Below, in pieces: positions 6,557 to 48,261 of a DNA stretch of 64,000 nt (position 1 is the first letter of the stretch; every line of letters begins with the position of its first letter). The position numbers and the translations under genes were made by a program. Below the pieces are notes generated by a model. It had not been told where the DNA came from, did not search any database, and saw only the letters and a list, made by a program, of their open reading frames with translations. The stretch lies in the IMG/VR virus record IMGVR_UViG_3300028048_002144. One strand, given 5' to 3'. The DNA comes from a virus (lineage: Duplodnaviria > Caudoviricetes).

Positions 6557-6947
6557 AAAGTGTCCTTCTTTCTAATAAAAACTACTCACATATTTAATAT
6601 GACAGTTCGTGAGTTTATTTCTTATTTATTTACCTATTTCTCTTTTTGTCTCCATATATAATTATGGTAATTCTGGAAATAAATAAGCATAAAGAAACAC
6701 CTAGTCTCATACAAGGCTAGGTGCTGTAATTTATTCATATGATTTAATTAATAATCAAAGGTTCTTTTTCTTCCAGACGCAAATATTCTTTATAATACTC
6801 TCTATCAGACGTAAAACCTTTTTCTACAAAATGATTGACAACTTTTTCAAAAGCATCTTCTTTTGTGTCAGCCTTTACATAACCATCATGTCCTTCGAAA
6901 TAGAAATAAAACATATACAAAACCCCTTTCTATAATTTTCTTTTTAG

Positions 6948-7031
6948 TGGATAGGGTAGGACTTGAACCTACAATGTCAATAAGACGACAGTTTTACAGA
7001 CTGCTGCATTACCAATTCTGCTCATCTATCC
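6948..7031 (-). tRNA. trnY: tRNA-Tyr(GUA)
   Basis: GCAGT-CTGTAAA-ACTGT anticodon arm, long V-arm, GGTTCAAGTCC T-arm. Confidence 0.9.
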
Positions 7032-7051
7032 ATATTCTATTCAATGTCTAT

Positions 7052-7246
7052 TTATTGTAAAAAATACATAATTAAAATTGAAGCTCCAAACAATATAAAA
7101 GCTTTAAGCATAGCTTGTATACTATCAATTTTTCTTTCATCTTTTGTATTTTGATAAGATAAATAAGGAATAAGTCCTTTAAATACAAAATAAACCATTG
7201 AAATTGATGTACCTACTATTGCTGATATAAATAAAATAGTTTTCAT
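7052..7246 (-). CDS. small 2-TM membrane protein
   Basis: 64 aa, GAGG RBS. Confidence 0.6.
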   Translation of the reverse strand: MKTILFISAIVGTSISMVYFVFKGLIPYLSYQNTKDERKIDSIQAMLKAFILFGASILIMYFLQ

Positions 7247-7290
7247 TTTCTTTTCCTCTTTTAATAAGCATTAAGATAAATACATTTAAA

Positions 7291-7379
7291 AGTAGGTGAT
7301 CGGAATCGAACCGATGATCTATAAATAAGACGTACAGTTTTGCAGACTGCCTTCTCGAACCAACAGAGAATTCACCTAC
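7291..7379 (-). tRNA. trnC: tRNA-Cys(GCA) with atypical long variable arm
   Basis: acceptor GTAGGTG/CACCTAC, U73, GCAGT-CTGCAAA-ACTGT, 18-nt variable region. Confidence 0.8.
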
Positions 7380-7557
7380 ATATATAATTATTTTTCTTTG
7401 GTAGTTTGCAATATTGGATATTTGTTCTAGGTTTAGGGCATTGTTCTAATGGTTTCCATTTGAAGCTATCCATTAAATATCCTAGAACACATTGCATTTC
7501 GTATTTGCTACAAGGACTAGATTCAAGTGCTCTACATCCATCACATGATTTTTTCAT
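7372..7557 (-). CDS. small Cys-rich protein
   Basis: 61 aa with CxxC and further Cys; AAGG RBS. Confidence 0.55.
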   Translation of the reverse strand: MKKSCDGCRALESSPCSKYEMQCVLGYLMDSFKWKPLEQCPKPRTNIQYCKLPKKNNYICR

Positions 7558-7559
7558 AA

Positions 7560-7856
7560 TTATCCTTCTTTACTATCTATCCATATAAGTGTAGCTGGAG
7601 CAATTACCAGATAAAATATTGCAATTTTACTAAGAGTTTTCGGTATCAACAAAAAAATTTTCGGAATTAAAAAGAAACACAATAGATCAATAAGATAAAG
7701 TCCTGCTATCATGCGTGGAACAAATCTTTTTGCATGTTCTTCCATTTCATGTTCAGCCTCTCCAATCTTTGTAGTTTTCTCTTCTGGAGAAAGTTCTTCA
7801 TTAGTTATTGTGCTTGTCACTTTTGTTGCAAACTTCATATATTCCTTGAGAAACAT
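7560..7856 (-). CDS. hypothetical membrane protein
   Basis: 98 aa, GGGAG RBS, 2 TM. Confidence 0.65.
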   Translation of the reverse strand: MFLKEYMKFATKVTSTITNEELSPEEKTTKIGEAEHEMEEHAKRFVPRMIAGLYLIDLLCFFLIPKIFLLIPKTLSKIAIFYLVIAPATLIWIDSKEG

Positions 7857-7877
7857 TTCTTTACTCCCTATTAAAAT

Positions 7878-8210
7878 CTACCAGCCTATTGTTAATAAAT
7901 CCAAGCATGTTTCATTATCATGTGTAAATTCTTGATATCCTACTACAATCATTTCCGGATCATAAGAGTCATAGTCTAAAGGATTAATCTTTCCATTTTC
8001 GATTTTAAACACACCACAAAAACCAAACACATTTGACCATCCAGGAATTTTACTTACATCATGTAACTGGATTACAGCATATTTATCCGAAAATAAATCT
8101 GTTTTATCAAACTCAGTTGGCTTTTCTAAAAATGAAAAATCTTTATAGTCATCAGTATTTAATACACGTTGTTTAAGTTTTTCAAAGGTTTCTTTTTCAT
8201 TCATTATCAT
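7878..8210 (-). CDS. hypothetical protein
   Basis: 110 aa, translationally coupled (ATGA overlap). Confidence 0.7.
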   Translation of the reverse strand: MIMNEKETFEKLKQRVLNTDDYKDFSFLEKPTEFDKTDLFSDKYAVIQLHDVSKIPGWSNVFGFCGVFKIENGKINPLDYDSYDPEMIVVGYQEFTHDNETCLDLLTIGW

Positions 8211-8506
8211 GCCTCAAAACAATTTTTATTAGTTTTTGTTTCTGGGTTTTCTGCTAATATTGAATCAAGAATTACTACTCGTGTTCTTTTGGTTTGTTGT
8301 CTAAATTTTTCTAAATCACGATCATCACTAACAAAATATGTATCTGTGTAATTACACTCTAACTCTCTTTTAACAACATCAGAAACAGATTCATATTGCT
8401 GACGTTTTGCGTATCGCAAAAATGCTGCTTTAGCAGCTTCGAAAAAGGGATCTCCTTCTTCTTTTTTAGGCTTAAAAAGATTTTTTATACAAGATAATAC
8501 TTTCAT
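8207..8506 (-). CDS. hypothetical protein
   Basis: 99 aa, AAGGAG RBS. Confidence 0.65.
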   Translation of the reverse strand: MKVLSCIKNLFKPKKEEGDPFFEAAKAAFLRYAKRQQYESVSDVVKRELECNYTDTYFVSDDRDLEKFRQQTKRTRVVILDSILAENPETKTNKNCFEA

Positions 8507-8545
8507 ATTTTCATTCTCCTTATAAATTCAATTATGTTTCTAACA

Positions 8546-8842
8546 TTAATTGTCCTGTAATAATATAATAAGATTTTTCAGAGCTTCTTCTGGAGTATTG
8601 CCTTTACCGATAATATAATCGTTTACATCATGGTCAGGATCATTTCCTTCCCAAAAGTTTTGGCATTCAACATCTCCTGCATCAACAGGAAGTTCAAAAA
8701 ATATATATGATGGAGATAGATTAAACGCAAGAAAGCAAGCTCCCGAATATGCTCCACCATATCTGTCTTCGATAATGCAAAGAGGACATGGTATTTTTAA
8801 ATTTATAAGTTCAGATGATTTCTGGTTTAAATCTTTATTCAT
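8546..8842 (-). CDS. hypothetical phage-like protein
   Basis: true start MNKDL after AAGGAG; the longer track ORF overlaps tRNA-His. Confidence 0.7.
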   Translation of the reverse strand: MNKDLNQKSSELINLKIPCPLCIIEDRYGGAYSGACFLAFNLSPSYIFFELPVDAGDVECQNFWEGNDPDHDVNDYIIGKGNTPEEALKNLIILLQDN

Positions 8843-8865
8843 ATTTTCGTTCTCCTTATAAAAAG

Positions 8866-8951
8866 GGTGAAGGAGGAGACTCGAACTCCCACGAGCATTA
8901 CACTCGGCAGATCCACAATCTGCTGCGTCTTCCAATTTCGCCACCAACACC
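8866..8951 (-). tRNA. trnH: tRNA-His(GUG) with atypical long variable arm
   Basis: G-1:C73, GCAGA-TTGTGGA-TCTGC, V-arm CGAGT-GTAAT-GCTCG; two U:U mismatches in acceptor. Confidence 0.8.
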
Positions 8952-8954
8952 CTA

Positions 8955-9029
8955 TTGCAGAACTGGGAGTCGAACCCAGTATCTCGAGATTATGAGACTC
9001 GAATGGTATATCCGTTCCACTCTTCTGCC
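8955..9029 (-). tRNA. trnM: tRNA-Met(CAU), initiator-like
   Basis: CTCATAA loop, G1:A72 mismatch, A73, GGTTCGACTCC T-arm. Confidence 0.75.
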
Positions 9030-9067
9030 ATGTTATAAAATTATTACAACTAGATTTAGGAAGGTCT

Positions 9068-9138
9068 CTCCCCAGTACAGGACTCGAACCTTGATTTCTT
9101 CGTTTCCAAAGTGTTCTACCGATTGAACTAACCGGGGA
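9068..9138 (-). ncRNA. tRNA-like RNA with GAAA tetraloop replacing the anticodon loop
   Basis: TCCCCGG/CTGGGGA acceptor, G73, normal D-arm, CTTTG-GAAA-CGAAG arm, TTCGAGT T-loop. Confidence 0.65.
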
Positions 9139-9163
9139 TTCGCCTTCCATGTCTAATTGTTTA

Positions 9164-9236
<73 letters not shown>

Positions 9237-9250
9237 CTATTAATAATTAA

Positions 9251-9356
9251 TGTCTACGGTCCGAAAACGCCTCGTCTGCAGCCGATACCTTTTATACTGA
9301 AATAACAGTTTAAGCATGGCCAAAAACTGTGCAAACGTATACACAAGGAATAGACA
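9251..9356 (-). ncRNA. candidate structured RNA between tRNAs
   Basis: nested stems TGTCTA/TAGACA, CGTTTGCA/TGCAGACG, CAGTTT/AAACTG. Confidence 0.4.
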
Positions 9357-9360
9357 GTAG

Positions 9361-9433
9361 TGATTCCTGCGAGAATCGAACTCTGCATCTTAGCCTTGAA
9401 AGGGCTATGTCATAACCATTAGACCAAGGAACC
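9361..9433 (-). tRNA. trnE: tRNA-Glu(UUC)
   Basis: TAGCC-CTTTCAA-GGCTA; one bulge in T-stem. Confidence 0.88.
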
Positions 9434-9543
9434 ATGACTCGTTGTTTAGCTAATTTTTAAGTGGACAACGATAACCACTCGCACTAAATTGTAAAACATA
9501 AAGTTTCATTTAATAATTCAAGTTTAGCCTACTTGTTTATTTG

Positions 9544-10545
9544 TTATCTATCGTCTCCGATATCAAAATCGTCCATAGAATCCGAGATATCTTTTTCCTT
9601 TTTGATATTCGGTTCTGGCTTTTTGTAACATATATCTCCACGTTCTAAATGTATTTCTAAAGCGTGATCCAAAATACGTTCTTTTCTTTCTTGTATCATT
9701 GTCTTATAAAAATTCTTACGAGTATCTGATATGATAGGTGTCTCATCAATGATTTTATTGATTTTATCCATATCAATATTTGGAACGATTTTCGCAATTG
9801 CTCTTACACAATTAATATCATCACTTGAATTAAGCATCTCGTGATAAGTGTATTTTTCTGCATGCTTAATGTCATCTGTTTTTAATAGTGCTGCTTTAGG
9901 AAAATCGTACATTCTTCTATCGATTTCTTCCCTGCTACTTAGAATTTTTTCAAATGCCTTTTCAGCCAATCCAGGATATAAAGAACTACCACAATCATAA
10001 ACAGGTGCTAAACGAATTGTTCGTTCTTGTTCATTAACAAGATATCCCCAGTTCCCCTTATGGCGATCAAAATTGCCAATCAAAGCATCTGCAACAAATG
10101 TATCCCAATACCTAGCTATCGATTCATCTCTAATTACGGATAATAGAGATCGATCTATGGTTCCATATATTTGATTGTATGTTGGTATGCGACCAATCTC
10201 GTTTTTTCTATATACAGTACGCATAAACCAATCGAACTCCTGAAGCTTTTCACCTGGTTGTACAAAGTCTTTACATGCAACAACCGGTTCATCCTCATAC
10301 ACACCTAATAAAGTATCGTGTGTTGGTAATCCCAAAGATCCTACTATATGGCTACCAATGTATTCTGAGAATACGCTGTTTGAGGTGCTTGTTGTCAAAT
10401 CATTAATCTTTTGTTTTTCATCGGCAAATTTAAGCATATAATGTTCGCCATTATAAATGATTGATTTCTTAGAATCTGAACCACCATAATCACGCAAACC
10501 TTGTTGTGCATATGTAAAATCAATGATTTGTTCCATATATACCAC
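9544..10545 (-). CDS. HipA-family Ser/Thr kinase
   Basis: YGGSDSKK loop, YMLKF, SEYIGS, IGNFDRHKGNWG catalytic loop, LAPVYDCGS. Confidence 0.85.
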   Translation of the reverse strand: MVYMEQIIDFTYAQQGLRDYGGSDSKKSIIYNGEHYMLKFADEKQKINDLTTSTSNSVFSEYIGSHIVGSLGLPTHDTLLGVYEDEPVVACKDFVQPGEKLQEFDWFMRTVYRKNEIGRIPTYNQIYGTIDRSLLSVIRDESIARYWDTFVADALIGNFDRHKGNWGYLVNEQERTIRLAPVYDCGSSLYPGLAEKAFEKILSSREEIDRRMYDFPKAALLKTDDIKHAEKYTYHEMLNSSDDINCVRAIAKIVPNIDMDKINKIIDETPIISDTRKNFYKTMIQERKERILDHALEIHLERGDICYKKPEPNIKKEKDISDSMDDFDIGDDR

Positions 10546-10741
10546 CTCTACAGTAATAATCTTTTAAAGCTTCTTGTTGTTCTCGTGTCAAATCGATATC
10601 ATATGAATTAATATCCGAACGAAGATTGTCCATGTAACAATCTGGAAGCTCGCCACCACTGTTTAAATACTCTAACAATTCATCGATATCTCTTTGAATC
10701 AAATACGGAATATTAAAATCGAACTTCTTTGCATAATACAT
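10520..10741 (-). CDS. small acidic protein, putative antitoxin of the HipA-like kinase
   Basis: start MYYAKK after AAAGGAG; overlaps kinase start; own TGnTATACT extended -10 at ~10806-10814. Confidence 0.55.
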   Translation of the reverse strand: MYYAKKFDFNIPYLIQRDIDELLEYLNSGGELPDCYMDNLRSDINSYDIDLTREQQEALKDYYCRGGIYGTNH

Positions 10742-10860
10742 ATATTGTGCTCCTTTTAAATATGTATATCTTTTTATTTGAAACAAAATAACGTTCCATA
10801 TAATTAGTATAACATTATCATTTCTACATTATTTACAAAAATAGATTCGATTTAAAGGAA

Positions 10861-10917
10861 TAGCGATAACCGGATTCGAACCGATACCTTGCAAATGCAC
10901 CATTACACCATATCGCC
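10861..10917 (-). ncRNA. 57-nt mini tRNA-like RNA lacking anticodon arm
   Basis: GGCGATA/TATCGCT acceptor plus A, D-arm GTGT-AATGGT-GCAT, ATCGG-TTCGAAT-CCGGT T-arm; 9 nt between D and T arms. Confidence 0.65.
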
Positions 10918-11144
10918 ATCAGACCGTTTTTAGTCGCCTTTAAAGTTTAATCTCAAAGGATCTCTTGAGTGCGTGATCAAACTCTGTGTCTTTTAATGCC
11001 CTATAGGCTCTGTTCTTTAATGCCCTGTAGGCATGATACTATGATAGGTTTATGGTCTCTTATCCCCGACCTCTCGGATATGTTTAAAGTCTCTAACCCG
11101 ACTAATTTTGAATCGTCCACTAAAGCAGGACCTCTCTAATTTTA

Positions 11145-11489
11145 TCAACTATTTTTAACTAGGATATTCTTCATAAAAATATAGTCATTCAAAAAATCTT
11201 GTATTTTAGCCTTAACCTTTATTGATCCTAGAGTATCTTTCGTTCTATTCATTGTTGAAAATACTAAATCTCTTCTTTTTACATCATCATCAATAAAATA
11301 ACGGGTATCACAATGAAGAGAATTACAAAGTAGTTCTAAATCAAAAGTATTAATTTCTTCGTAAGCAAGTTCATTAGCAATTAGTTTCTTAATTACATCT
11401 TCATCTACAAAAGACTCTTTAGATAAAATAGAACAATCAATATTCAACATATTCATTCTTTTACGCAATTCATTACCAATGTACTTCAT
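11145..11489 (-). CDS. XRE/HTH-like transcriptional regulator
   Basis: IGNELRKRMNMLNIDCSILSKES...LELLCNSLHCDTRYF resembles Cro/XRE fold; AGGAG RBS. Confidence 0.6.
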   Translation of the reverse strand: MKYIGNELRKRMNMLNIDCSILSKESFVDEDVIKKLIANELAYEEINTFDLELLCNSLHCDTRYFIDDDVKRRDLVFSTMNRTKDTLGSIKVKAKIQDFLNDYIFMKNILVKNS

Positions 11490-11538
11490 ACGTAAACTCC
11501 TATTTAACTATGCTTACAAAAGATATCAAAAATATTAT

Positions 11539-11920
11539 TTATCGTGTTTTAGATGATAGAATTTTCATCCAAATCAATCTATATGTATGAATTAAAGACT
11601 CTGTGTATTCTTGCATTTCTTTTAGAATTTTTGGATCTTCAATATGCTTAGGATACCCATATTTTGTTGCATTTAAAAACAAGTGTATCTTAACGTATTT
11701 CTCTCGTATTTTTAATTCTTCCTCAGTCGTATGGTTACCAATATGTATTCCATACTGACCAAACTATTATTTTTAACCAAAACGGAACTTTTTTCATTTC
11801 TTGAATCATTTCTGGGTGATCTATAATATAAATAATTTTACATTTCTCAAGATAAATACGAATAAGAATAAGAATAAGAATTACTATAATTGCTCCAATT
11901 GTAATAATAGTTTCATTCAT
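11539..11920 (-). pseudogene. frameshifted membrane-anchored protein
   Basis: MNETIITIG frame stops at 11735; a second frame (GIHIGNHTTEEELKIREKY...KTR) runs to 11539 without its own start. Confidence 0.4.
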
Positions 11921-11953
11921 TATTGCAATATCTTCCCTTTCTAAAACACTGAG

Positions 11954-12037
11954 CAGGCGTGGAGAGATTCGAACTCTCAGTATCCTTTCGGAGTCATGGT
12001 TTTGGAGACCACTGCTGTTCCGTTGAGCCACACGCCT
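11954..12037 (-). tRNA. trnW: tRNA-Trp(CCA) with atypical long variable arm
   Basis: AGGCGTG/CACGCCT, G73, GTGGT-CTCCAAA-ACCAT, V-arm TCC-GAAA-GGA. Confidence 0.85.
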
Positions 12038-12092
12038 ATAAATAAGTATCAATATTAAGCAATTGTCTAAAATACGAGGTCTCAATACATCA

Positions 12093-12177
12093 GGAGCGTT
12101 GCAGGGAATTGAACCCTAAACTAGTATTTTCCTTCGGCTCAGAACCGCTGTGCTATCCGTTACACCAAACAACGCTC
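12093..12177 (-). ncRNA. atypical tRNA-like RNA (CAGCGGTYCTGA family, copy 1)
   Basis: 8-bp acceptor GAGCGTTG/CAACGCTC, D- and T-arms present, no canonical anticodon arm. Confidence 0.6.
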
Positions 12178-12274
12178 ATATAGGTAATTTAGGCATTTTG
12201 CCAGGGTTTTATGTTGCCAGATGCCTCCATCTTAGCGCAATCTTAAAACCACAACCTATTTACCCACATTTTAA

Positions 12275-12358
12275 CGCAGTATCCAGGACTCGAACCTGGA
12301 AACCATTTCTGGATGCTTGATTAGTAGTCAAGTGCTGTACCAATTGAGCCAATACTGC
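12275..12358 (-). tRNA. trnS: tRNA-Ser(ACU) with long variable arm
   Basis: CTTGA-CTACTAA-TCAAG, V-arm CCA-GAAA-TGG, G73. Confidence 0.75.
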
Positions 12359-12525
12359 ATAATTAATGCAGCTCCTCTTGTCTCGAACCTTTACAGATAG
12401 GAAAGTTAGCTATTCTTTCGTTCGTCTGTTTTCCCCAGATCAAATATGCTGGTCTGTCAGGGGACTCAAGGATACTGCTTTAACTAGGTCGTAATGCCTA
12501 AAATACGAGGTCACAATGCCCCAAG

Positions 12526-12597
12526 CGACTCTACTGGGAATCGAACCCAAATCTTCGGATAGACAGTCCGACATAATAGCCGTTATACCATAGAGCC
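12526..12597 (-). tRNA. trnD: tRNA-Asp(GUC)
   Basis: TCGGA-CTGTCTA-TCCGA, G73. Confidence 0.9.
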
Positions 12598-12859
12598 ATA
12601 GTGCCTACCAATTCACATTATCATACATGGGGGGAGGTTCAAATATGTATGAATATGCTATAAGCTCGGCTTTGCTTCCATTTCAAAAGGAGAATTCTAA
12701 TAATGAAAATAAACGCAGTAAACTATAAACAAAATGAAAGGGGAATACTAAAACAAACACAAAAAAAGTGAATGGTATTTAGTAAACATGCGCTTATTCT
12801 ATTATTAGAGTGCATCTAATGGGATTCGAACCCATACTCTATTGCTAGAAAGGGATTTT

Positions 12860-13545
12860 CGTACCACTATATCTTTCAATACCCATCTGTGTATATGGTT
12901 TGTGGTCTGGAATCAATCTTTGCCCACTACTAAAAGTGTTGGGGCAGGACATGTATATTCTCTACGCACTCACTTAATAGTGATTGGCACGGTATTGCTA
13001 CTAGGAAAAGTTTCACCGTTTAGTGTCCATTCAGCGTAAATATTCCTATTTACCTGCTCATGCTTACCAGAGTAATTCAACTTCTTTTAGTCTGTTTTCC
13101 ATTCGATATAAAAGTTTATAACTATGACTACCTACTTTTCCTGAACATGATTTACTACAAGTTAAATAACGTGTTCTACCACGATTTATATCAACATAAA
13201 ATCTTGTCCATTTATCGCTTTTCATAACAAACTTAGCACCACAAATAATACAGGTTTCAATTGTATCTTTGTATTTTCTAGAATGTTGTTTTTGATGCTC
13301 ACCATGAACTAAAATTTCTAAATTAGATAAATCATTATTATCTGGGTTTTCGTCTTTATGATGAACATCTTCTTCTGGCTTTAATGGCCTGCCTAGCTTC
13401 TTCGCCATTAAAATTCGAGGATATGAAATTACATGTGGTTTGCCATTTTCATCTACACAGTAAGCTCTCCACCTGCCATCCCTGCATTTGTAAGCTTTTT
13501 TAATAAAAAGATCCATATGCTATCCTCTCTAAGGCCTTACTATCT
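12860..13545 (-). mobile_element. group I intron (IC3/trnL-type) carrying a homing endonuclease ORF
   Basis: inserted after U34, terminal G; P-like CTAAACGGTGAAAC, Q-like AATACCGTGCC, R-like GTAGAGAAT, S-like AAGATTGATTCC; P3 GGACA/TGTCC. Confidence 0.85.
13064..13516 (-). CDS. intron-encoded HNH homing endonuclease with C-terminal Zn-finger
   Basis: EEDVHHKDENPDNNDLSNLEIL HNH motif; CIIC...CSKSC; GAGAGG RBS. Confidence 0.85.
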   Translation of the reverse strand: MDLFIKKAYKCRDGRWRAYCVDENGKPHVISYPRILMAKKLGRPLKPEEDVHHKDENPDNNDLSNLEILVHGEHQKQHSRKYKDTIETCIICGAKFVMKSDKWTRFYVDINRGRTRYLTCSKSCSGKVGSHSYKLLYRMENRLKEVELLW

Positions 13546-13831
13546 AAGTCCCTCGTGTCTGCCAGTTCCACCATAGATGCATATTTGTCTACTTAAAGAA
13601 CCATTAGAAATGTAGACTTTATTCTTTTTAATATAAGGATTTATGTTAATCGTACTACCCTATATTTGGAACCTGGTCAAAAATAAATAATAGATCAAAA
13701 TAATAATAATATTGGTTAGTTAACCTTCGTCTCTAATTCTGTTTGTAAATCTTCTTAAACCCATATCATAAGTCTTCCTTTCTGTAGCCTATTTTTTATT
13801 AATAAAATGAGTTTAATGCTTCATTTTTTAA

Positions 13832-13903
13832 CAGCCCATACTGGATTCGAACCAGTGCATCAGGGAGTCAAATTCCCCTGCCTTACCGCTTGGCTAATGA
13901 GCT
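13832..13903 (-). tRNA. trnQ: tRNA-Gln(UUG)
   Basis: GGGGA-ATTTGAC-TCCCT; Gln-type D-arm GCCAAGCGGTAAGGC. Confidence 0.88.
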
Positions 13904-14076
13904 AGATTGTGGGGTTTATCAAACCCCACATGTAAAGATTGAGTTATCTCAAAAAAATAATGAGATAAAGGGTAGGTAGGATTTCTACCATGAAAGAAAG
14001 TATAAAATCAACATTGAGATATCAAAAAGTATCAAAAATATATCTCGAACTATAGTGAAATGGATACTTTTTATAG

Positions 14077-14150
14077 CGGATTCGCCAGGACTCGAACCTG
14101 GGACATCATGATTAACAGTCATGCGTTCTAACCGACTGAACTACGAATCC
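14077..14150 (-). tRNA. trnN: tRNA-Asn(GUU)
   Basis: CATGA-CTGTTAA-TCATG, G73. Confidence 0.92.
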
Positions 14151-14335
14151 ATACAGGAAACATCACTTTGATAAATGACGTTTCCAGGACATCCTTCTAC
14201 AACATGGTAGACGATTATTCGAGGATTTTGATACCGCAGTTCCACAACTGCGTACAACAAACAGAAAGGAAGGTGACGTTACGTGAAGTGCGACCCCTAT
14301 CTGTCTATTGCATTAAATTGTAAGAGACAGAGTGT

Positions 14336-14943
14336 TACATAAACACTCTATAAGAATAACTGCCGAACTCGTTTTACTAACTTCGCTCTATTCTTAATAG
14401 CACCACTATATTCGATCACATGGAAGATACATGCGAACCTAAATTGTACGGGTTTAGGCTATGTACCCTGGCAAGCCATGAAAGGACTGATACCTTTAAC
14501 TTTCACCACCATTCGCATTAAAATAACAGATCCTTATAAATCTTCTGTTTTTAAGATTTTAATGCAAGCATTAGGCTACTCGTACAGACTTCTATTCTTA
14601 TTGGTAAGAATTTCTTCTTACATCTATGCTTTACCTACTTATTTGATTATTCCAACTGCAGTATCCCTTGTTATCACACGCAGGGCTTACAGGGTTCCCT
14701 ACCTATTTCTAGTGGGCTTATTATCGCAGGTGATAGTTTGTCTTATCTTTAGCTTCGTCTATCAAGATATGCCATAACCAACGTTTGAGAGGTTCCTCTC
14801 TTTTATCTCTATTATTACTAATAAAGAAGTGGGCTCTCACATACACTATCGCATATGCTTATCCTTTGATTGCATTATGCCCTAGCAGAGTTGGCGACTC
14901 TTCTGCACTAGGATGGCAATTATTCTTATAGAATGTTTATGTA
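14336..14943 (-). ncRNA. large structured RNA, ROOL-like (~608 nt)
   Basis: 29-bp terminal helix that is perfect (2 G:U) only on the minus strand; many internal hairpins; inside tRNA array; family assignment from size and context only. Confidence 0.6.
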
Positions 14944-14978
14944 TTTTTCAATGTGCATATTAAGCTATTAAAAGCTTA

Positions 14979-15058
14979 GGGGCACCTAGAGAGTCGAACT
15001 CTAACCGGTGTTTTGTCTTTCAGGACCGCTGATGTGCTACCGTTACACTAAAATGCCC
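14979..15058 (-). ncRNA. atypical tRNA-like RNA (CAGCGGTYCTGA family, copy 2)
   Basis: GGGCATT/GGTGCCC acceptor plus C, D-arm GTGT-AACGGTA-GCAC, TCAG-CGGTC-CTGA short arm, TAGAG-TTCGACT-CTCTA T-arm. Confidence 0.6.
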
Positions 15059-15185
15059 ATACTCAATGTTCTATTTAATGTGGGAACAAAGAAGCCACAG
15101 GGTAAAAGAAATGAATGAATTAACAATCCAAGAAATCTTTGATATGAAGTCTTGAAATGATGCTGCCGACAATAACGACAGCAAG

Positions 15186-15259
15186 TGGACCATGTTGGAC
15201 TCGAACCAACGACAGCTCGCTTATGAGGCGAGTGGTCTAACCAACTGACCTAATGGTCC
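15186..15259 (-). tRNA. tRNA(CAU), probably Ile2 (lysidine), else elongator Met
   Basis: GGACCAT/ATGGTCC acceptor, CTCGC-CTCATAA-GCGAG. Confidence 0.85.
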
Positions 15260-15387
15260 ATGCGAGAGACCAAAAATAAACAAGAGAAAGGAGACTGGTC
15301 TCTCTAAAACTATGAAAAAAATATTGATTTATTAAAGCAGAAAGCCCTATGCTCATATAAAACTTACGATAAGACCTTCTGCCTTAA

Positions 15388-15469
15388 TGACCCTGATGGG
15401 ACTCGAACCCACATGAGCTACGCTCGCATGATTAAAAGTCATGTGCCATACCAATTAGGCGACAGAGTC
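15388..15469 (-). tRNA. trnK: tRNA-Lys(UUU) with atypical long variable arm
   Basis: CATGA-CTTTTAA-TCATG, V-arm GAGC-GTA-GCTC, A73. Confidence 0.85.
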
Positions 15470-15552
15470 ATAGTGCAGATATTCTCTGCACTAAAAACGT
15501 ATTTTGAAAGGAGTATATGCAACAGATGATTTTACTTTATCTATCTTGTTGA

Positions 15553-15575
15553 CATATTTAATATGACAGATATAC
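15553..15575 (-). promoter_or_regulatory. putative promoter of the RNA operon
   Basis: TCTGTCATATTAAATATG, the element-wide motif, at the head of the array. Confidence 0.55.
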
Positions 15576-15605
15576 TCCCTTTTCTTCATTTTTGTTATGA
15601 TTTTT

Positions 15606-35021: not shown

Positions 35022-37454
35022 TTAGAATAAACTCTTTCTATCAGTTTTTTGTGTATTATGCTTTTTCTTATCATCTGGTTTAGTTGTAAATAACTTATAC
35101 AACAGTAGATTCTGTGGGAATTCATTTACAAATGGTATAGTTACACCATCTTTTCTAATAAGTCCCTGCCCAAATGGTGATTCATCAATAAATGCTAACT
35201 GAGATTCTGATAAGTTATAATGGTCTCTCAAAATCTCAATACCAGTAGGCTTCTGCGACAGAATCATCATGAATGATGAGTTATCAAGTACACTAAATCC
35301 AGCTTCACTATTAAAGTCTACAATACTCTGTGTAATAGCTGTTGGAACGCCATCCCACTTTCTAGCTCTTCTCCAGATTGTAGATAAGTATTCAGCAGCT
35401 GTTGGAGTCTTTAATGCGTGATGTGCCTCATCAATATAAATACGTGTTCTCTTTCCTTTCGCAAAGTTAGCAATAATCGTATTCCAGATGTGGTCAAGGC
35501 ATACCATGTATCCAGTTTCCTTTAGTCCAGATCCTAATGACTTGATATTGTATACTGTAAATCTGTTATTTACCTCAATATTTGTCTTATGAGCAAATAT
35601 ATCATGAGTTGTAGTATAAAGTTCAAGCTGTGCAGCCAGGTCAGGCGCATATGGGTTATTTTCACTTCTTATGGCATCAATGAAATCTATAAGTGTTGGT
35701 GAGAACTCTGGCTGACAGGTAATACTCTTGTCCTGCAGTAATCTCATTTGTTCAAGATATGGTCTATACATCTTTACTACTGCACTAGAAATCAAACTCT
35801 GTTCTGGAAGTGTCAGTGATCTTGTTTTACCTATCATAGTATCCACTAGTGATAAGATATAATCTGATTTTACCTTTACAGGATCCAGATTAGTCTGATT
35901 ATCTTCATCACCGTACTGTAAGTCCATATCGAATGGGTTCAAGAATAATGTTGAACCTTGTGCAAGTTTAATTTCTGCTCCATTAAATGCTTTTATTAAT
36001 TCTGAATACTCTCCTTCAGGATCAATAATGATAATATCATCATCTGTATTTAAGAATACACTTGCAATCTCTTGCTTTGCAGCCATTGATTTACCAGAAC
36101 CAGGAGTACCAACGATAATTCCGTTAGGGTTATTTCCTTTCGTTCTATCATAGATAAGCATATTCTTTGTATTAGCATTTAATCCGTAGTAGATACCACC
36201 TTCATCCATAAGTTCTACAGAATTAAATGGAATAAACAATGCTACGTTATCAGATGGCATTGTAAAAGGTGTGATTCCATCATCTCTACACAATGGAAGA
36301 ACAGTCTTAAATCCGTCTTCCTGTCTAAATGATAATCTATCTGCCTTAATGATGAATGTATTTAATTCGGTAAGCAATGTTTGCTCATTCATATTTAATT
36401 CATCTAATGTATCAGCAGTAATTAAGAATGTGCAACTGAATAAGAACAGCTTCTGATCTCCAGACTGTACTTCTTCGATTAATTCATTAGCTTGCTCATG
36501 TGCATACTTTAATTTTGGAGAAATCAAATCTCCACTATATCCAGCTTTAAATGCCTGTTTTTCTGCATCAATTACGTCACCACGGATTCCAGTAGCTTTA
36601 TCATTCAGCTTTTTGATAGCTTTATCCTGAGATAATGGAATAATGTTATATGATGCAACTACATTTATTGGCAGTGAAGCTATTGAACTTACAACATCAG
36701 TATTTAAAAGGCTAGGATAATTCTTTACGAATATTGTTCTCGCATATAAATTACCCATTCTAAAGTCATTGATTGAGTTGAAATAGAATCCAGATGGAGC
36801 AATGAAATCTTTAGTTGAGTCGCCACGTTTAGTTAATGTAGCGATATCTATTCTCTCGTCACCCTTGATCTCTTTATTAGTAATCATTTCCTGGATAGTC
36901 GTTAATCTATCTTCAATAGTCTGTGTTTTTACAATAGGCTTAGATGTTTTTGCAAGTCTAGTAAGCTGCTTCTTAATTTCAGAATCATTTCGACCTAACT
37001 GGATTCTTGCTTCTTCTACATCTACAGCTTCTACACCTATTACTAAGTATTTATCTGTTATGATATTATTTCTTCCAGATTTACTCTGTATTTCGAGAAG
37101 TTTATTATAATCTTCTCTATATTCATTGTATGAATCACTTTTCATTCTGATCTTAACTTTTTGAATAGCTGTTTCGTTATCTATTGTTTTATTATGGATA
37201 ACTAACTGTATTCTAGTATTAGATGAAAACGAATTTAAAAATCTAACATAATTGTCGAAGATTTTTTCTTGTTCAACATCAGATGCAGCTGAAAAATTTA
37301 TATCATCCAGCTTATATGCCTTAGTAAAGAACTGTGGTTTTGATTCGATAATACCATCATCATATATGCTGTAATATGGTATAGTCTCTTGTGCTGTTCT
37401 TGGCTTTGGTTCTTTCGCCTTTTTAGGGCTTTTTTTGATATTAACAAAACTCAT
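35022..37454 (-). CDS. virB4: VirB4-family conjugation ATPase
   Basis: YYGLN, GTPGSGKS, IIDPEGEY, IYIDEAH, RRARKW. Confidence 0.92.
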   Translation of the reverse strand: MSFVNIKKSPKKAKEPKPRTAQETIPYYSIYDDGIIESKPQFFTKAYKLDDINFSAASDVEQEKIFDNYVRFLNSFSSNTRIQLVIHNKTIDNETAIQKVKIRMKSDSYNEYREDYNKLLEIQSKSGRNNIITDKYLVIGVEAVDVEEARIQLGRNDSEIKKQLTRLAKTSKPIVKTQTIEDRLTTIQEMITNKEIKGDERIDIATLTKRGDSTKDFIAPSGFYFNSINDFRMGNLYARTIFVKNYPSLLNTDVVSSIASLPINVVASYNIIPLSQDKAIKKLNDKATGIRGDVIDAEKQAFKAGYSGDLISPKLKYAHEQANELIEEVQSGDQKLFLFSCTFLITADTLDELNMNEQTLLTELNTFIIKADRLSFRQEDGFKTVLPLCRDDGITPFTMPSDNVALFIPFNSVELMDEGGIYYGLNANTKNMLIYDRTKGNNPNGIIVGTPGSGKSMAAKQEIASVFLNTDDDIIIIDPEGEYSELIKAFNGAEIKLAQGSTLFLNPFDMDLQYGDEDNQTNLDPVKVKSDYILSLVDTMIGKTRSLTLPEQSLISSAVVKMYRPYLEQMRLLQDKSITCQPEFSPTLIDFIDAIRSENNPYAPDLAAQLELYTTTHDIFAHKTNIEVNNRFTVYNIKSLGSGLKETGYMVCLDHIWNTIIANFAKGKRTRIYIDEAHHALKTPTAAEYLSTIWRRARKWDGVPTAITQSIVDFNSEAGFSVLDNSSFMMILSQKPTGIEILRDHYNLSESQLAFIDESPFGQGLIRKDGVTIPFVNEFPQNLLLYKLFTTKPDDKKKHNTQKTDRKSLF

Positions 37455-47342: not shown

Positions 47343-47891
47343 TTACACATACGAATTCTGTAAAAACTCTATTGTTTTTTCGTGGTAATTAGCATTCTCC
47401 GTCTTACTCATTAAATCGAACGCTTCTTCTCTAGTTAATGCGTCTCGATATGGTCTTGACGATGTTAATGCTTCATACACATCTATCGTATGCAGGATCT
47501 TTGCATATTCTAGTATCTTTTCCGTTTTCTTAAATTCAACCGGCATTAATGTTTCAGGATTTTCAGTATGATGATACAGTATGATGTATCGAACTTCTTC
47601 ACTTATGTTCGTTTCATTTAATAGTTCAAAACTAAAATATGCATGGTAGTTAACTATCTTTCTTTCAAGATTAGTTAATCGTCCAGGTTTATTCAGAATG
47701 CTTTCTGATAGGTAATATTTTCCTACGTCATGGAATAATGCTGCGGTAGATAAAACCCCTTCATCTAAATTTAGGGTTTGTTCTAAAACCTTCGCTATGT
47801 TATACATTCTGATACTGTGTCTTCGGGTAATTAAGGGTAATCTCTCTACGAGTTCACTTTCCTTATCTCCCCACTGGTCAAAATTTTCCAT
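47343..47891 (-). CDS. HD-GYP-type phosphohydrolase (GYP motif degenerate)
   Basis: HSIR, ALFHDVGK, ILNKPGRLT, YHH-E, DVYEALTSSRPYR. Confidence 0.8.
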   Translation of the reverse strand: MENFDQWGDKESELVERLPLITRRHSIRMYNIAKVLEQTLNLDEGVLSTAALFHDVGKYYLSESILNKPGRLTNLERKIVNYHAYFSFELLNETNISEEVRYIILYHHTENPETLMPVEFKKTEKILEYAKILHTIDVYEALTSSRPYRDALTREEAFDLMSKTENANYHEKTIEFLQNSYV

Positions 47892-48261
47892 CTATTTCTT
47901 AGCAGGATACCTCGATTTTTATAAGTCAAGAATCCCCTACGTCTCCTTTCTGTAAATTACTGATATGTTTATTGCTATAAGCCGGTACATACCAACCGTA
48001 ATGCAGCCTTCGCCAATGTTATTATGAGGTTTTTGTAAGCAACACTGTTCCTACCCATCAGAACTGTTTAATCACTTACCTTAGAGCTACAGACTAGGCT
48101 GTACATCCGTAGGTAACTATACATGACAATGAAACTGCTAATGTTTCATTGTATATTCTCATATAACGTAGTCAGTTAAGACTTAGGCTAGTCAATTAAG
48201 GCTTTTACAAGCCTCCACTTCAATGATTATGAAATAATCGTAAGTGGTGGGTTATTGACAT
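47892..48261 (-). mobile_element. ORF-less IscB-type element with full-length omegaRNA (HEARO-like)
   Basis: GTCAATAACCC...GGCTTG...TTGACTAGCCTAAG...CTACGTT...CCTACGGATG...CCTAGTCTGTAGCTCT...AACATTGGCGAAGG; RBS GAAAGGAG runs straight into right-end hairpin. Confidence 0.8.

Follow-up and report, generated by a model that had tools for sequence, protein, structure and literature searches.

The window analysed here, a stretch of 64,000 nucleotides (nt) held as a virus record in IMG/VR (IMGVR_UViG_3300028048_002144), contains an island of tRNA-shaped genes that is probably a long tRNA array carried by a conjugative plasmid. The island comprises 18 tRNA-shaped units, all of them encoded on the minus strand between positions 15470 and 6947 (around 8.5 kb), together with a ROOL RNA, structured spacers, a split tRNA-Leu and several protein genes. 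Fourteen of the units are able to decode and the other four are look-alikes that are unable to do so. Our own scanner finds the acceptor and T stems of most units intact, and none of the 18 genes is followed by an encoded CCA.

Layout of the island

The units were counted by several means. ARAGORN detected 13 and the Rfam tRNA model 14, including three missed by ARAGORN; two more (Cys and the unit called 'Gln CUG') match the tRNA-Sec model only, below its threshold, and the last two (the look-alike at 15058-14979 and the split tRNA-Leu) were recognised by reading the sequence and with our own T-arm/acceptor scanner. Nine units are ordinary: tRNA(CAU), Asn, Gln(UUG), Asp, Glu, Thr, the class II tRNAs for Tyr and Leu, and a second tRNA(CAU) with minor flaws. 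The nine atypical ones are five tRNAs with a long variable arm and the four non-decoders. All seven tRNAs for codons with a middle A are present (Tyr, His, Gln, Asn, Lys, Asp and Glu), and the remaining decoders are Leu-UAA, Thr, Cys, Trp, a tRNA with anticodon ACU and the two CAU tRNAs. A first-pass annotation, made by a model from the sequence, had proposed 18 co-oriented units, none clearly encoding CCA and about half of them deviating from canonical form, and these three points are confirmed.

The same annotation had described a 9-kb RNA operon below one promoter motif, and neither part of this description holds. The RNA-only block is limited to 15575-11950, where the ORF (open reading frame) of the intron is the sole protein gene; the remainder of the island (11950-6947) is interleaved with around 10 ORFs that have ribosome-binding sites, and therefore an RNA operon does not extend over the entire stretch. 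The promoter motif (TTGACA-16-TATACT, 15549-15576) is located on the plus strand, so that it points out of the island. Promoter-like sites show no enrichment, with 41 seen and 43 expected from shuffled sequence, and the motif GACCTCGTATTTTAG, found after two units, is not significant in the window, where it has four matches and 7 of 100 shuffles do as well.

The carrier

The carrier is a conjugative plasmid, represented by a contig of ~205 kb of which the island takes up ~8.6 kb; the window is 99.99% identical to a 205,255-bp ENA contig over the matching part. Pfam searches of the window revealed a VirD4-like coupling protein (213 bits), which resembles those of Firmicute conjugative plasmids, a VirB4/TraG-type ATPase of 810 amino acids (aa) and a VirB11-like ATPase, as well as a Mob_Pre relaxase, Rep3, ParA and a surface protein of 2026 aa. 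The genes of the type IV secretion system, with Mob_Pre, Rep3 and ParA, thus bear out the plasmid label that the first-pass annotation had given to this DNA.

A phage origin of the window was considered because of a PHROG 'terminase' match and of matches to faecal 'Bacteriophage sp.' contigs, and it was overruled by the Pfam assignment of the VirB4/TraG-type ATPase and by the full set of conjugation genes. The gene concerned (35022-37454) encodes the VirB4-type conjugation ATPase and is matched by PHROG 2666 ('terminase large subunit') at 1.3e-22. Full-length homologues of this ATPase, with 35% identity, are found in GenBank 'Bacteriophage sp.' faecal contigs (unverified records), so some of these records may be plasmids; these contigs contain no tRNAs and no Rfam families. 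Searches for relatives of the replicon by megablast and blastn in plasmid and phage collections matched the canonical tRNAs only and revealed no close DNA relative. Protein-based locus searches of viral contigs with the kinase, the exonuclease and the VirB4-like protein gave zero matches each, and homologues of the exonuclease amount to a single match, a 1.5-kb contig.

tRNAs with a long variable arm

Five tRNAs of the island have a variable arm that is long and base-paired:

15387-15470, minus strand: tRNA-Lys(UUU) with long variable arm, A73, no CCA (ARAGORN; Rfam tRNA model, 59.2 bits).
12274-12359, minus strand: tRNA with anticodon ACU, long variable arm, G73 (ARAGORN).
11953-12037, minus strand: tRNA-Trp(CCA) with long variable arm (3-bp stem, GAAA loop), A1:U72, G73 (ARAGORN, family alignment).
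8865-8951, minus strand: tRNA-His(GUG) with long variable arm, encoded G-1 opposite C73, two U.U mismatches in the acceptor stem (ARAGORN, 38.2 bits).
7291-7379, minus strand: tRNA-Cys(GCA) with long variable arm, U73 (ARAGORN; tRNA-Sec model, 41.7 bits, below the gathering score of 47).

The identity marks of the cognate tRNAs are kept, i.e. A73 in Lys, A1:U72 and G73 in Trp, G-1:C73 in His and U73 in Cys. The Lys, Trp, His and Cys tRNAs of the window therefore share a class I anticodon, a cognate discriminator and a paired extra arm of 12-22 nt. The 5' half of the ACU tRNA is paralogous to the Thr and Lys tRNAs of the island (repeat family D2).

Related to this, a search pattern composed of the tRNA-Trp anticodon arm and at least 7 extra bases ahead of the T loop detected long-arm tRNA-Trp genes in at least 120 viral contigs, and no match to it was found in 401 genomes of Clostridia. 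Among the matches listed, 118 of the 123 Trp tRNAs in matching viral loci have at least 82 nt, and the extra arm measures 12-22 nt across 87 distinct tRNA-Trp sequences. G73 is nearly invariant in these 87 sequences; a hairpin of at least 3 bp is formed by 63 of the distinct arms, with a GAAA, GUAA or GCAA cap in 38. The same viral loci contain long Lys, His, Cys, Asn, Arg, Ile and Met tRNAs, plus an ACU tRNA. By these matches, the long-arm tRNAs are a design widespread in viral tRNA islands; a literature search revealed neither a description of class I tRNAs with such arms in viral tRNA islands nor a published name for them. The stem sequences of the arms vary between the 87 members and nevertheless stay complementary, which argues against the view that the atypical units of the island are pseudogenes produced by deletions and point mutations in a redundant, acquired tRNA cluster. 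The two U.U mismatches in the acceptor stem of tRNA-His would suit that view, as would the G1xA72 mismatch of the second CAU tRNA.

Two further observations concern viral islands. The ACU tRNAs (A34, which would read AGU; G73; long arm) recur in viral islands L144, L145, L154, L156 and L161, where the copies have a tRNA-Ser-type body, unlike the copy of the window, whose 5' half is as in Thr and Lys. Besides, a 250-kb viral contig (L017:6844-6928) contains a tRNA-Cys(GCA) with long variable arm, U73 and encoded CCA; CCA is encoded by all ten tRNAs of its ten-tRNA island, unlike the units of the window.

Non-decoding tRNA look-alikes

The four units unable to decode are the following:

14979-15058, minus strand: look-alike unit 3, with a 4-bp stem and a 15-nt loop in place of the anticodon arm (own scanner, sequence).
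12093-12176, minus strand: look-alike unit 9 (ARAGORN 'Gln CUG'), with a 3-bp anticodon stem (ARAGORN; tRNA-Sec model only, 25.4 bits).
10861-10917, minus strand: 57-nt look-alike without anticodon arm (Rfam tRNA model, 38.6 bits, arm deleted).
9069-9137, minus strand: look-alike with a GAAA tetraloop on a 5-bp stem as anticodon loop (Rfam tRNA model, 39.5 bits, alignment).

Unit 3, located 42 nt upstream of ROOL, is called neither by ARAGORN nor by Rfam. Its acceptor, D and T arms are intact, with 7 of 7 acceptor pairs and 5 of 5 T-stem pairs in our scanner. Units 3 and 9 are paralogous, having in common the D arm and the start of the following helix, and a pattern shared by both led to two metagenomic contigs with relatives of the island (L223 and L224). 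In these contigs unit 9 is conserved at 96-99% identity and its flanks are diverged or replaced, which speaks against decay. Directly 5' of the T stem, unit 9 has a self-complementary hexamer (ACUAGU, 12118-12123); two of the four substitutions in the L224 homologue give GCUAGC and so keep the self-complementarity, and unit 3 has ACCGGU (15003-15008) at the matching place. This palindromic hexamer hints at RNA dimerisation or at a palindromic protein-binding site.

The armless unit has a different history. Its L223 homologue is of full length and retains the anticodon arm, and therefore the armless form arose by deletion, in this case of 13 nt between TGCAAG repeats, as a decaying array would have it. 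The copy of L224 is also armless, with 93% identity and with pairs preserved despite the substitutions; the form has thus persisted in two lineages that differ by 7%, a point against decay. In the unit at 9069-9137 the GAAA tetraloop replaces the anticodon loop, so that decoding is impossible, and such a loop on a clean 5-bp stem is again not what decay would lead one to expect.

With ROOL, the look-alikes and all the spacers as queries, nhmmer gave no match in 220 loci, and no precedent was found in the literature for the unusual tRNA-shaped designs that make up half of the units. The Cys and 'Gln CUG' units were also examined as candidates for tRNA-Sec or allo-tRNA and rejected, given that their scores (41.7 and 25.4 bits) are below the gathering score of 47 and that ARAGORN draws them as 7/5.

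A separate tRNA-shaped family, not called by ARAGORN, recurs in viral loci (L104:9475-9554; three copies in L139 and two in L153; L147, L186, L202, L121 and L214). It consists of an acceptor strand followed by a hairpin with an anticodon-like loop (e.g. CUUAUAA), and then of a conserved GUAAYUGG and a short hairpin ahead of the T arm.

ROOL and the structured spacers

The ROOL RNA and the spacers with distinctive structure or conservation are located as follows:

15471-15575, minus strand: leader ahead of tRNA-Lys, with a 9-bp hairpin stopping 1 nt before the tRNA (z = -3.8).
15260-15386, minus strand: spacer in which a 20-bp hairpin and a U-rich run are followed by a 10-bp hairpin ending 4 nt before the next tRNA (structure).
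14346-14936, minus strand: ROOL RNA (RF03087, 205.4 bits, gathering score 99.1, model positions 1-574 of 574).
14151-14345, minus strand: structured spacer closed by a 13-bp hairpin, 5 nt ahead of tRNA-Asn (z = -4.6).
12177-12273, minus strand: conserved structured spacer (z = -3.25; 93% identity in L224).
10918-11144, minus strand: spacer with a conserved first part of ~100 nt (11140-11043) followed by two 24-nt tandem repeats (11031-10984) (L223, L224).

What had been annotated as a ROOL-like RNA is a full-length ROOL, its score being well above the gathering score (205.4 against 99.1 bits). It folds with z = -5.8 against shuffles and lies, co-oriented, between look-alike unit 3 and tRNA-Asn. 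The structured spacers of the first-pass annotation are also real in the sense that seven of them, within 15575-12176, give z from -3.3 to -6.4 against shuffles. The fold signal is clearly restricted to the island strand for three spacers (15386-15260, 15184-15061 and 12814-12598), the first of which has z = -6.4 on this minus strand, its plus strand giving -1.75. Five units (tRNA-Lys, Met, Asn, Gln and unit 3) have a hairpin of 9-13 bp that ends no more than 5 nt from their 5' ends, and cleavage by RNase P would therefore leave hairpin-protected 3' ends.

The contigs L223 and L224 allow some of the spacers to be compared. In the spacer at 12177-12273, all five variable pairs are still paired in L224, one of them being changed on both sides. 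The 100-nt element at 11140-11043 has 88-91% identity in both contigs; two of its pairs have both bases replaced, and one pairing is broken. This covariation, for which two or three sequences are available, speaks for genuine RNA structure in some of the spacers, none of which matches an Rfam family. The conservation that the first-pass annotation had expected of spacers and atypical units is therefore found for some of them, compensatory changes included.

At the site of the two 24-nt tandem repeats of the window, L224 (820-1060) and L223 (5720-6050) have an ORF-free segment of ~250-330 nt which is conserved between both contigs, matches no Rfam family and may be a further structured RNA module. 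As far as other large RNAs are concerned, GOLLD, which is related to ROOL, was present in 1 of 15 scanned viral islands with long-arm tRNAs. A GOLLD RNA is located at L153:9195-9643 (164.7 bits), where a tRNA is embedded at 9507-9577 and the island has a long-arm tRNA-Trp.

The split tRNA-Leu and the ordinary tRNAs

The ordinary units are listed below:

15185-15259, minus strand: canonical tRNA(CAU), Met or Ile2 (ARAGORN, Rfam).
14076-14150, minus strand: canonical tRNA-Asn(GUU) (ARAGORN; Rfam, 74.2 bits).
13831-13904, minus strand: canonical tRNA-Gln(UUG), with a 10-bp hairpin before it (ARAGORN, Rfam).
12811-13580, minus strand: tRNA-Leu(UAA), class II, A73, exons 13580-13546 and 12859-12811 (sequence).
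12525-12597, minus strand: canonical tRNA-Asp(GUC) (ARAGORN, Rfam).
9360-9433, minus strand: tRNA-Glu(UUC) (ARAGORN, Rfam).
9163-9237, minus strand: tRNA-Thr(UGU) (ARAGORN, Rfam).
8955-9029, minus strand: second tRNA(CAU), whose flaws are a G1xA72 mismatch and a U31.U39 pair (Rfam tRNA model, 39.5 bits, alignment).
6947-7031, minus strand: tRNA-Tyr(GUA), ordinary bacterial class II (ARAGORN, Rfam).

The tRNA-Leu is interrupted between U34 and A35 by an intron of 686 nt (13545-12860) that ends in G and contains an HNH endonuclease ORF (13516-13064; HNH_3, 27.6 bits), which is also matched by homing-endonuclease models. The group I model of Rfam (RF00028) gave no match on 12780-13640 at E up to 10, and the 3' part of the intron alone has an unremarkable fold (z = -1.25). 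Motifs that resemble the R-like and S-like elements of a group I core can be seen by eye, and they serve as an unconfirmed lead. The intron announced by the first-pass annotation is therefore present, with its site, terminal G and HNH ORF; its assignment to group I is only inferred, because the Rfam model is silent and the core motifs are putative.

The kinase module and other protein genes

The protein genes of the downstream half are the following:

11537-11920, minus strand: gene for a small membrane protein, 127 aa in the ENA contig, frameshifted in the window.
11145-11489, minus strand: ORF of 114 aa with a weak match to Cro/C1-type helix-turn-helix (HTH) proteins (HTH_26, E = 0.072).
9544-10741, minus strand: two-gene module, in which an ORF of 73 aa (10741-10520) overlaps the start of a 330-aa Ser/Thr kinase of the HipA/CtkA family (10536-9544).
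7052-8842, minus strand: six small ORFs that have ribosome-binding sites and match no family; they are protein genes and not spacers.

The HipA-like kinase gene seen by the first-pass annotation is confirmed by the HipA_C domain of Pfam (45 bits) and by the similarity to Helicobacter pylori CtkA (PDB 3akj; 6e-65 over residues 4-298); the defence-candidate model PDC-M03A also matches it (106 bits), and residues D153, N158, D160, R161, H162, N165 and D184 are invariant in 31 homologues. More than 1,500 homologues were found in gut metagenomes, and most of the closer relatives have an ORF of 72-80 aa just upstream, usually overlapping the kinase start. In three-part toxin-antitoxin systems of the HipBST type, the kinase gene directly follows genes for a HipS-like small protein and a HipB repressor. 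With regard to this arrangement, an HTH gene precedes the 72-80-aa ORF in one related locus (L098), and the small ORF has no family match; the window has a tRNA look-alike and a spacer between the weak-HTH ORF and the kinase pair. A tRNA island near the kinase was seen in 1 of 92 related loci, a few others having one to three tRNAs, and none of the closer relatives has such an island near the kinase. The proposal that the kinase is a component of the RNA system was therefore rejected, and with relatives that lack tRNA neighbours the kinase and its small upstream ORF are an independent mobile module.

The membrane-protein gene differs from the otherwise identical ENA contig by a 2-nt (TC) deletion at ~11756, either a real frameshift or an assembly difference, and as a result the 127-aa ORF is split to a 61-aa stub; a frameshifted neighbour is what a decaying array might contain. 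In another part of the window, a full-length HEARO RNA (47998-48259, minus strand; 128.6 bits against a gathering score of 83), an RNA type linked to HNH/IscB-type genes, is followed just downstream on the same strand by an ORF of 182 aa (47343-47891).

Functional interpretation

The preferred explanation, with a probability of about 0.68, is that the island is a mosaic, horizontally assembled long tRNA array which serves as an accessory tRNA and non-coding RNA island of the ~205-kb conjugative plasmid of a low-GC gut Firmicute. Unrelated mobile protein modules, such as the CtkA/HipA-family kinase with its partner ORF and small membrane proteins, would have lodged in its downstream half. In Firmicutes, tRNA precursors without CCA are processed by RNase P, RNase Z and the CCA-adding enzyme. 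As CCA is encoded by no unit, these enzymes must act on every tRNA shape: each would be cut by RNase P at the 5' end and by RNase Z at the 3' end, and CCA would then be added. ROOL, the look-alikes and the spacers would be freed as a by-product of this processing, many of the spacers probably being left with a stable hairpin at the new 3' end. Most likely, the role of the decoders is to supply, and to insure, those tRNAs on which the AT-rich plasmid draws most, which would also be those attacked by anticodon nucleases. The island tRNAs read 57% of the 14,814 codons of the window ORFs, so the claim that the island is not a codon supplement is not supported; the tRNA set fits codon supply for an AT-rich replicon and, equally, insurance against anticodon nucleases.

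What stands of the first-pass annotation is, on the side of observation, the units, the absence of CCA, ROOL, the kinase gene and the plasmid, and on the side of interpretation, a plasmid-borne mixture of normal, remodelled and look-alike tRNAs with ROOL and spacers. The one promoter, the single RNA operon over the whole stretch, the membership of the kinase, the exclusion of codon supply and the novelty are not supported.

Several points weigh against the explanation just given. Co-transcription of the island is putative, as no promoter can be assigned to it. Codon usage was compared within the plasmid only. Three of the long-arm tRNAs correspond to rare amino acids (Trp 1.0%, Cys 1.1% and His 1.5% of codons), and these long arms fit simple codon supply poorly. 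The armless unit, as the product of a 13-nt deletion, could be inert, and the explanation assigns no role to ROOL, to the look-alikes or to the conserved spacers. Finally, it is based on sequence, as is the first of the alternatives given below.

According to that alternative, the long-arm tRNAs evade tRNA-cutting or tRNA-modifying toxins and the look-alikes are CCA-tagged decoys, the whole protecting the plasmid as it enters a new host. This is possible, though rather unlikely. The tRNAs for middle-A codons are the usual targets of anticodon nucleases, and the island has all of them. Besides, the tRNAs for rare amino acids are among those that bear long arms, for which codon demand offers no explanation, and long arms occur in viral contigs and not in the 401 genomes of the host class. 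It has also been described that tRNA supply by a phage overcomes retron-Eco7 and PrrC (PMC11555353) and that Septu cleaves the variable loop of tRNA-Tyr (PMC13096335). However, an AT-rich replicon would need the same tRNA set anyway, and the look-alikes have only two known relatives. To our knowledge, no defence system is blocked by a long variable arm or by a tRNA without anticodon.

The first-pass annotation itself preferred to see the tRNA shapes mainly as cutting marks for RNase P and RNase Z that set free ROOL and small regulatory RNAs, whose task would be to control translation or to counter defence. The block free of protein genes other than the intron ORF, the seven folded spacers (three of them clearly so on the island strand only), the hairpins next to five unit starts, the compensatory changes in two spacer elements and the position of ROOL between a look-alike and tRNA-Asn are all consistent with it. 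Punctuation of this kind is plausible, but it would be near-automatic for tRNA clusters without CCA and therefore unspecific: any tRNA cluster frees its intervening RNA, which is no proof that the spacers matter. Furthermore, the covariation comes from two or three sequences, the spacers are without match in the 220 loci and without Rfam family, a separate promoter-like site lies immediately ahead of ROOL, and most units are plausible decoders with intact identity marks, so that this purpose seems unlikely. It is similarly doubtful that both ideas combine in an RNA-based insurance and counter-defence cassette, with toxin-proof long-arm substitutes, decoy or dimerising look-alikes and tRNA shapes that excise functional ROOL and spacers. 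Decay of the atypical units to pseudogenes, which would agree with the weak expression frequent among the horizontally spread L-arrays (PMC8421152), is improbable in view of the acceptor and T stems that most units keep and of the conserved structures described above.

Comparison with known systems

The first-pass annotation had regarded the island as the best candidate for an undescribed system. However, ROOL is known near the tRNA islands of phages and prophages (Weinberg 2017, PMC5737381; Kretsch 2025, PMC12286853) and tRNA arrays that move horizontally have also been published (PMC8421152). The architecture of array plus ROOL is therefore known; what is unusual is to find long-arm tRNAs, non-decoding look-alikes and conserved spacers together on a conjugative plasmid. 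Both tRNA arrays and ROOL are common on mobile elements. The island joins on one transmissible plasmid working tRNAs, viral-type long-arm tRNAs, at least three kinds of non-decoding tRNA shapes and ROOL. Should the atypical units be produced, tailed with CCA and stable, they would represent a layer of tRNA-shaped RNA used against or alongside the translation and defence machinery of the host, and the plasmid would be a tractable system for asking the role of ROOL; if they are not produced, the island would be a mosaic tRNA array of the ordinary kind, in which some members have decayed.

As in the published ROOL islands of phages, prophages and megaplasmids, a full-length ROOL lies among co-oriented tRNA genes on a mobile element. 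Unlike them, the carrier is a conjugative plasmid and a non-decoding look-alike stands directly before ROOL. ROOL is an RNA type that assembles into homo-oligomeric cages, and the ROOL of the window was assigned to it from the sequence. L-arrays are horizontally spread, e.g. the 26-gene trn operon on a megaplasmid of Anabaena PCC 7120, where homing endonucleases are linked to the array and protein genes lie within it (PMC8421152), and units of Mycobacterium tRNA arrays occur with GOLLD (PMC5966550). The island resembles the L-arrays as a dense, co-oriented cluster of supernumerary tRNAs on a mobile replicon (14 decoders and four look-alikes in 8.5 kb, which reaches the density of an L-array), with a homing endonuclease and embedded protein genes; it differs from them in having fewer tRNAs, in that half of the units are atypical and in its look-alikes without anticodon.

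Group I introns in the anticodon loop of tRNA-Leu(UAA) are known from cyanobacteria and plastids. The intron of the window shares with them the U34/A35 site and the terminal G and has a homing-endonuclease ORF, whereas it is undetected by Rfam and seems to leave no room for P9 after the putative P7 strand. The kinase is like CtkA and the HipA/HipT toxin kinases in its full-length CtkA match, its HipA_C domain and its conserved catalytic motif, and unlike the HipA kinases it lacks the N-terminal HipA domain and has a small unannotated ORF as partner.

The tRNA cluster of phage T4 contains the stable species 1 and species 2 RNAs, and tRNA punctuation is the model for mitochondrial transcripts. 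By analogy, the non-tRNA RNAs between the tRNAs of the window would be freed by the tRNA-processing enzymes. Lastly, allo-tRNAs and the selC* tRNA-Cys have an 8/4 or 9/3 split between acceptor and T stem and a tRNA-Sec-like body (Mukai 2017, PMC5389517). The island recalls them by its long variable arms on non-serine anticodons, by a tRNA-Cys(GCA) with U73 that resembles tRNA-Sec and by irregular tRNAs in a possibly polycistronic arrangement, and it departs from them in that its units can be drawn as 7/5, stay below the tRNA-Sec threshold and carry the identity marks of their cognate tRNAs.

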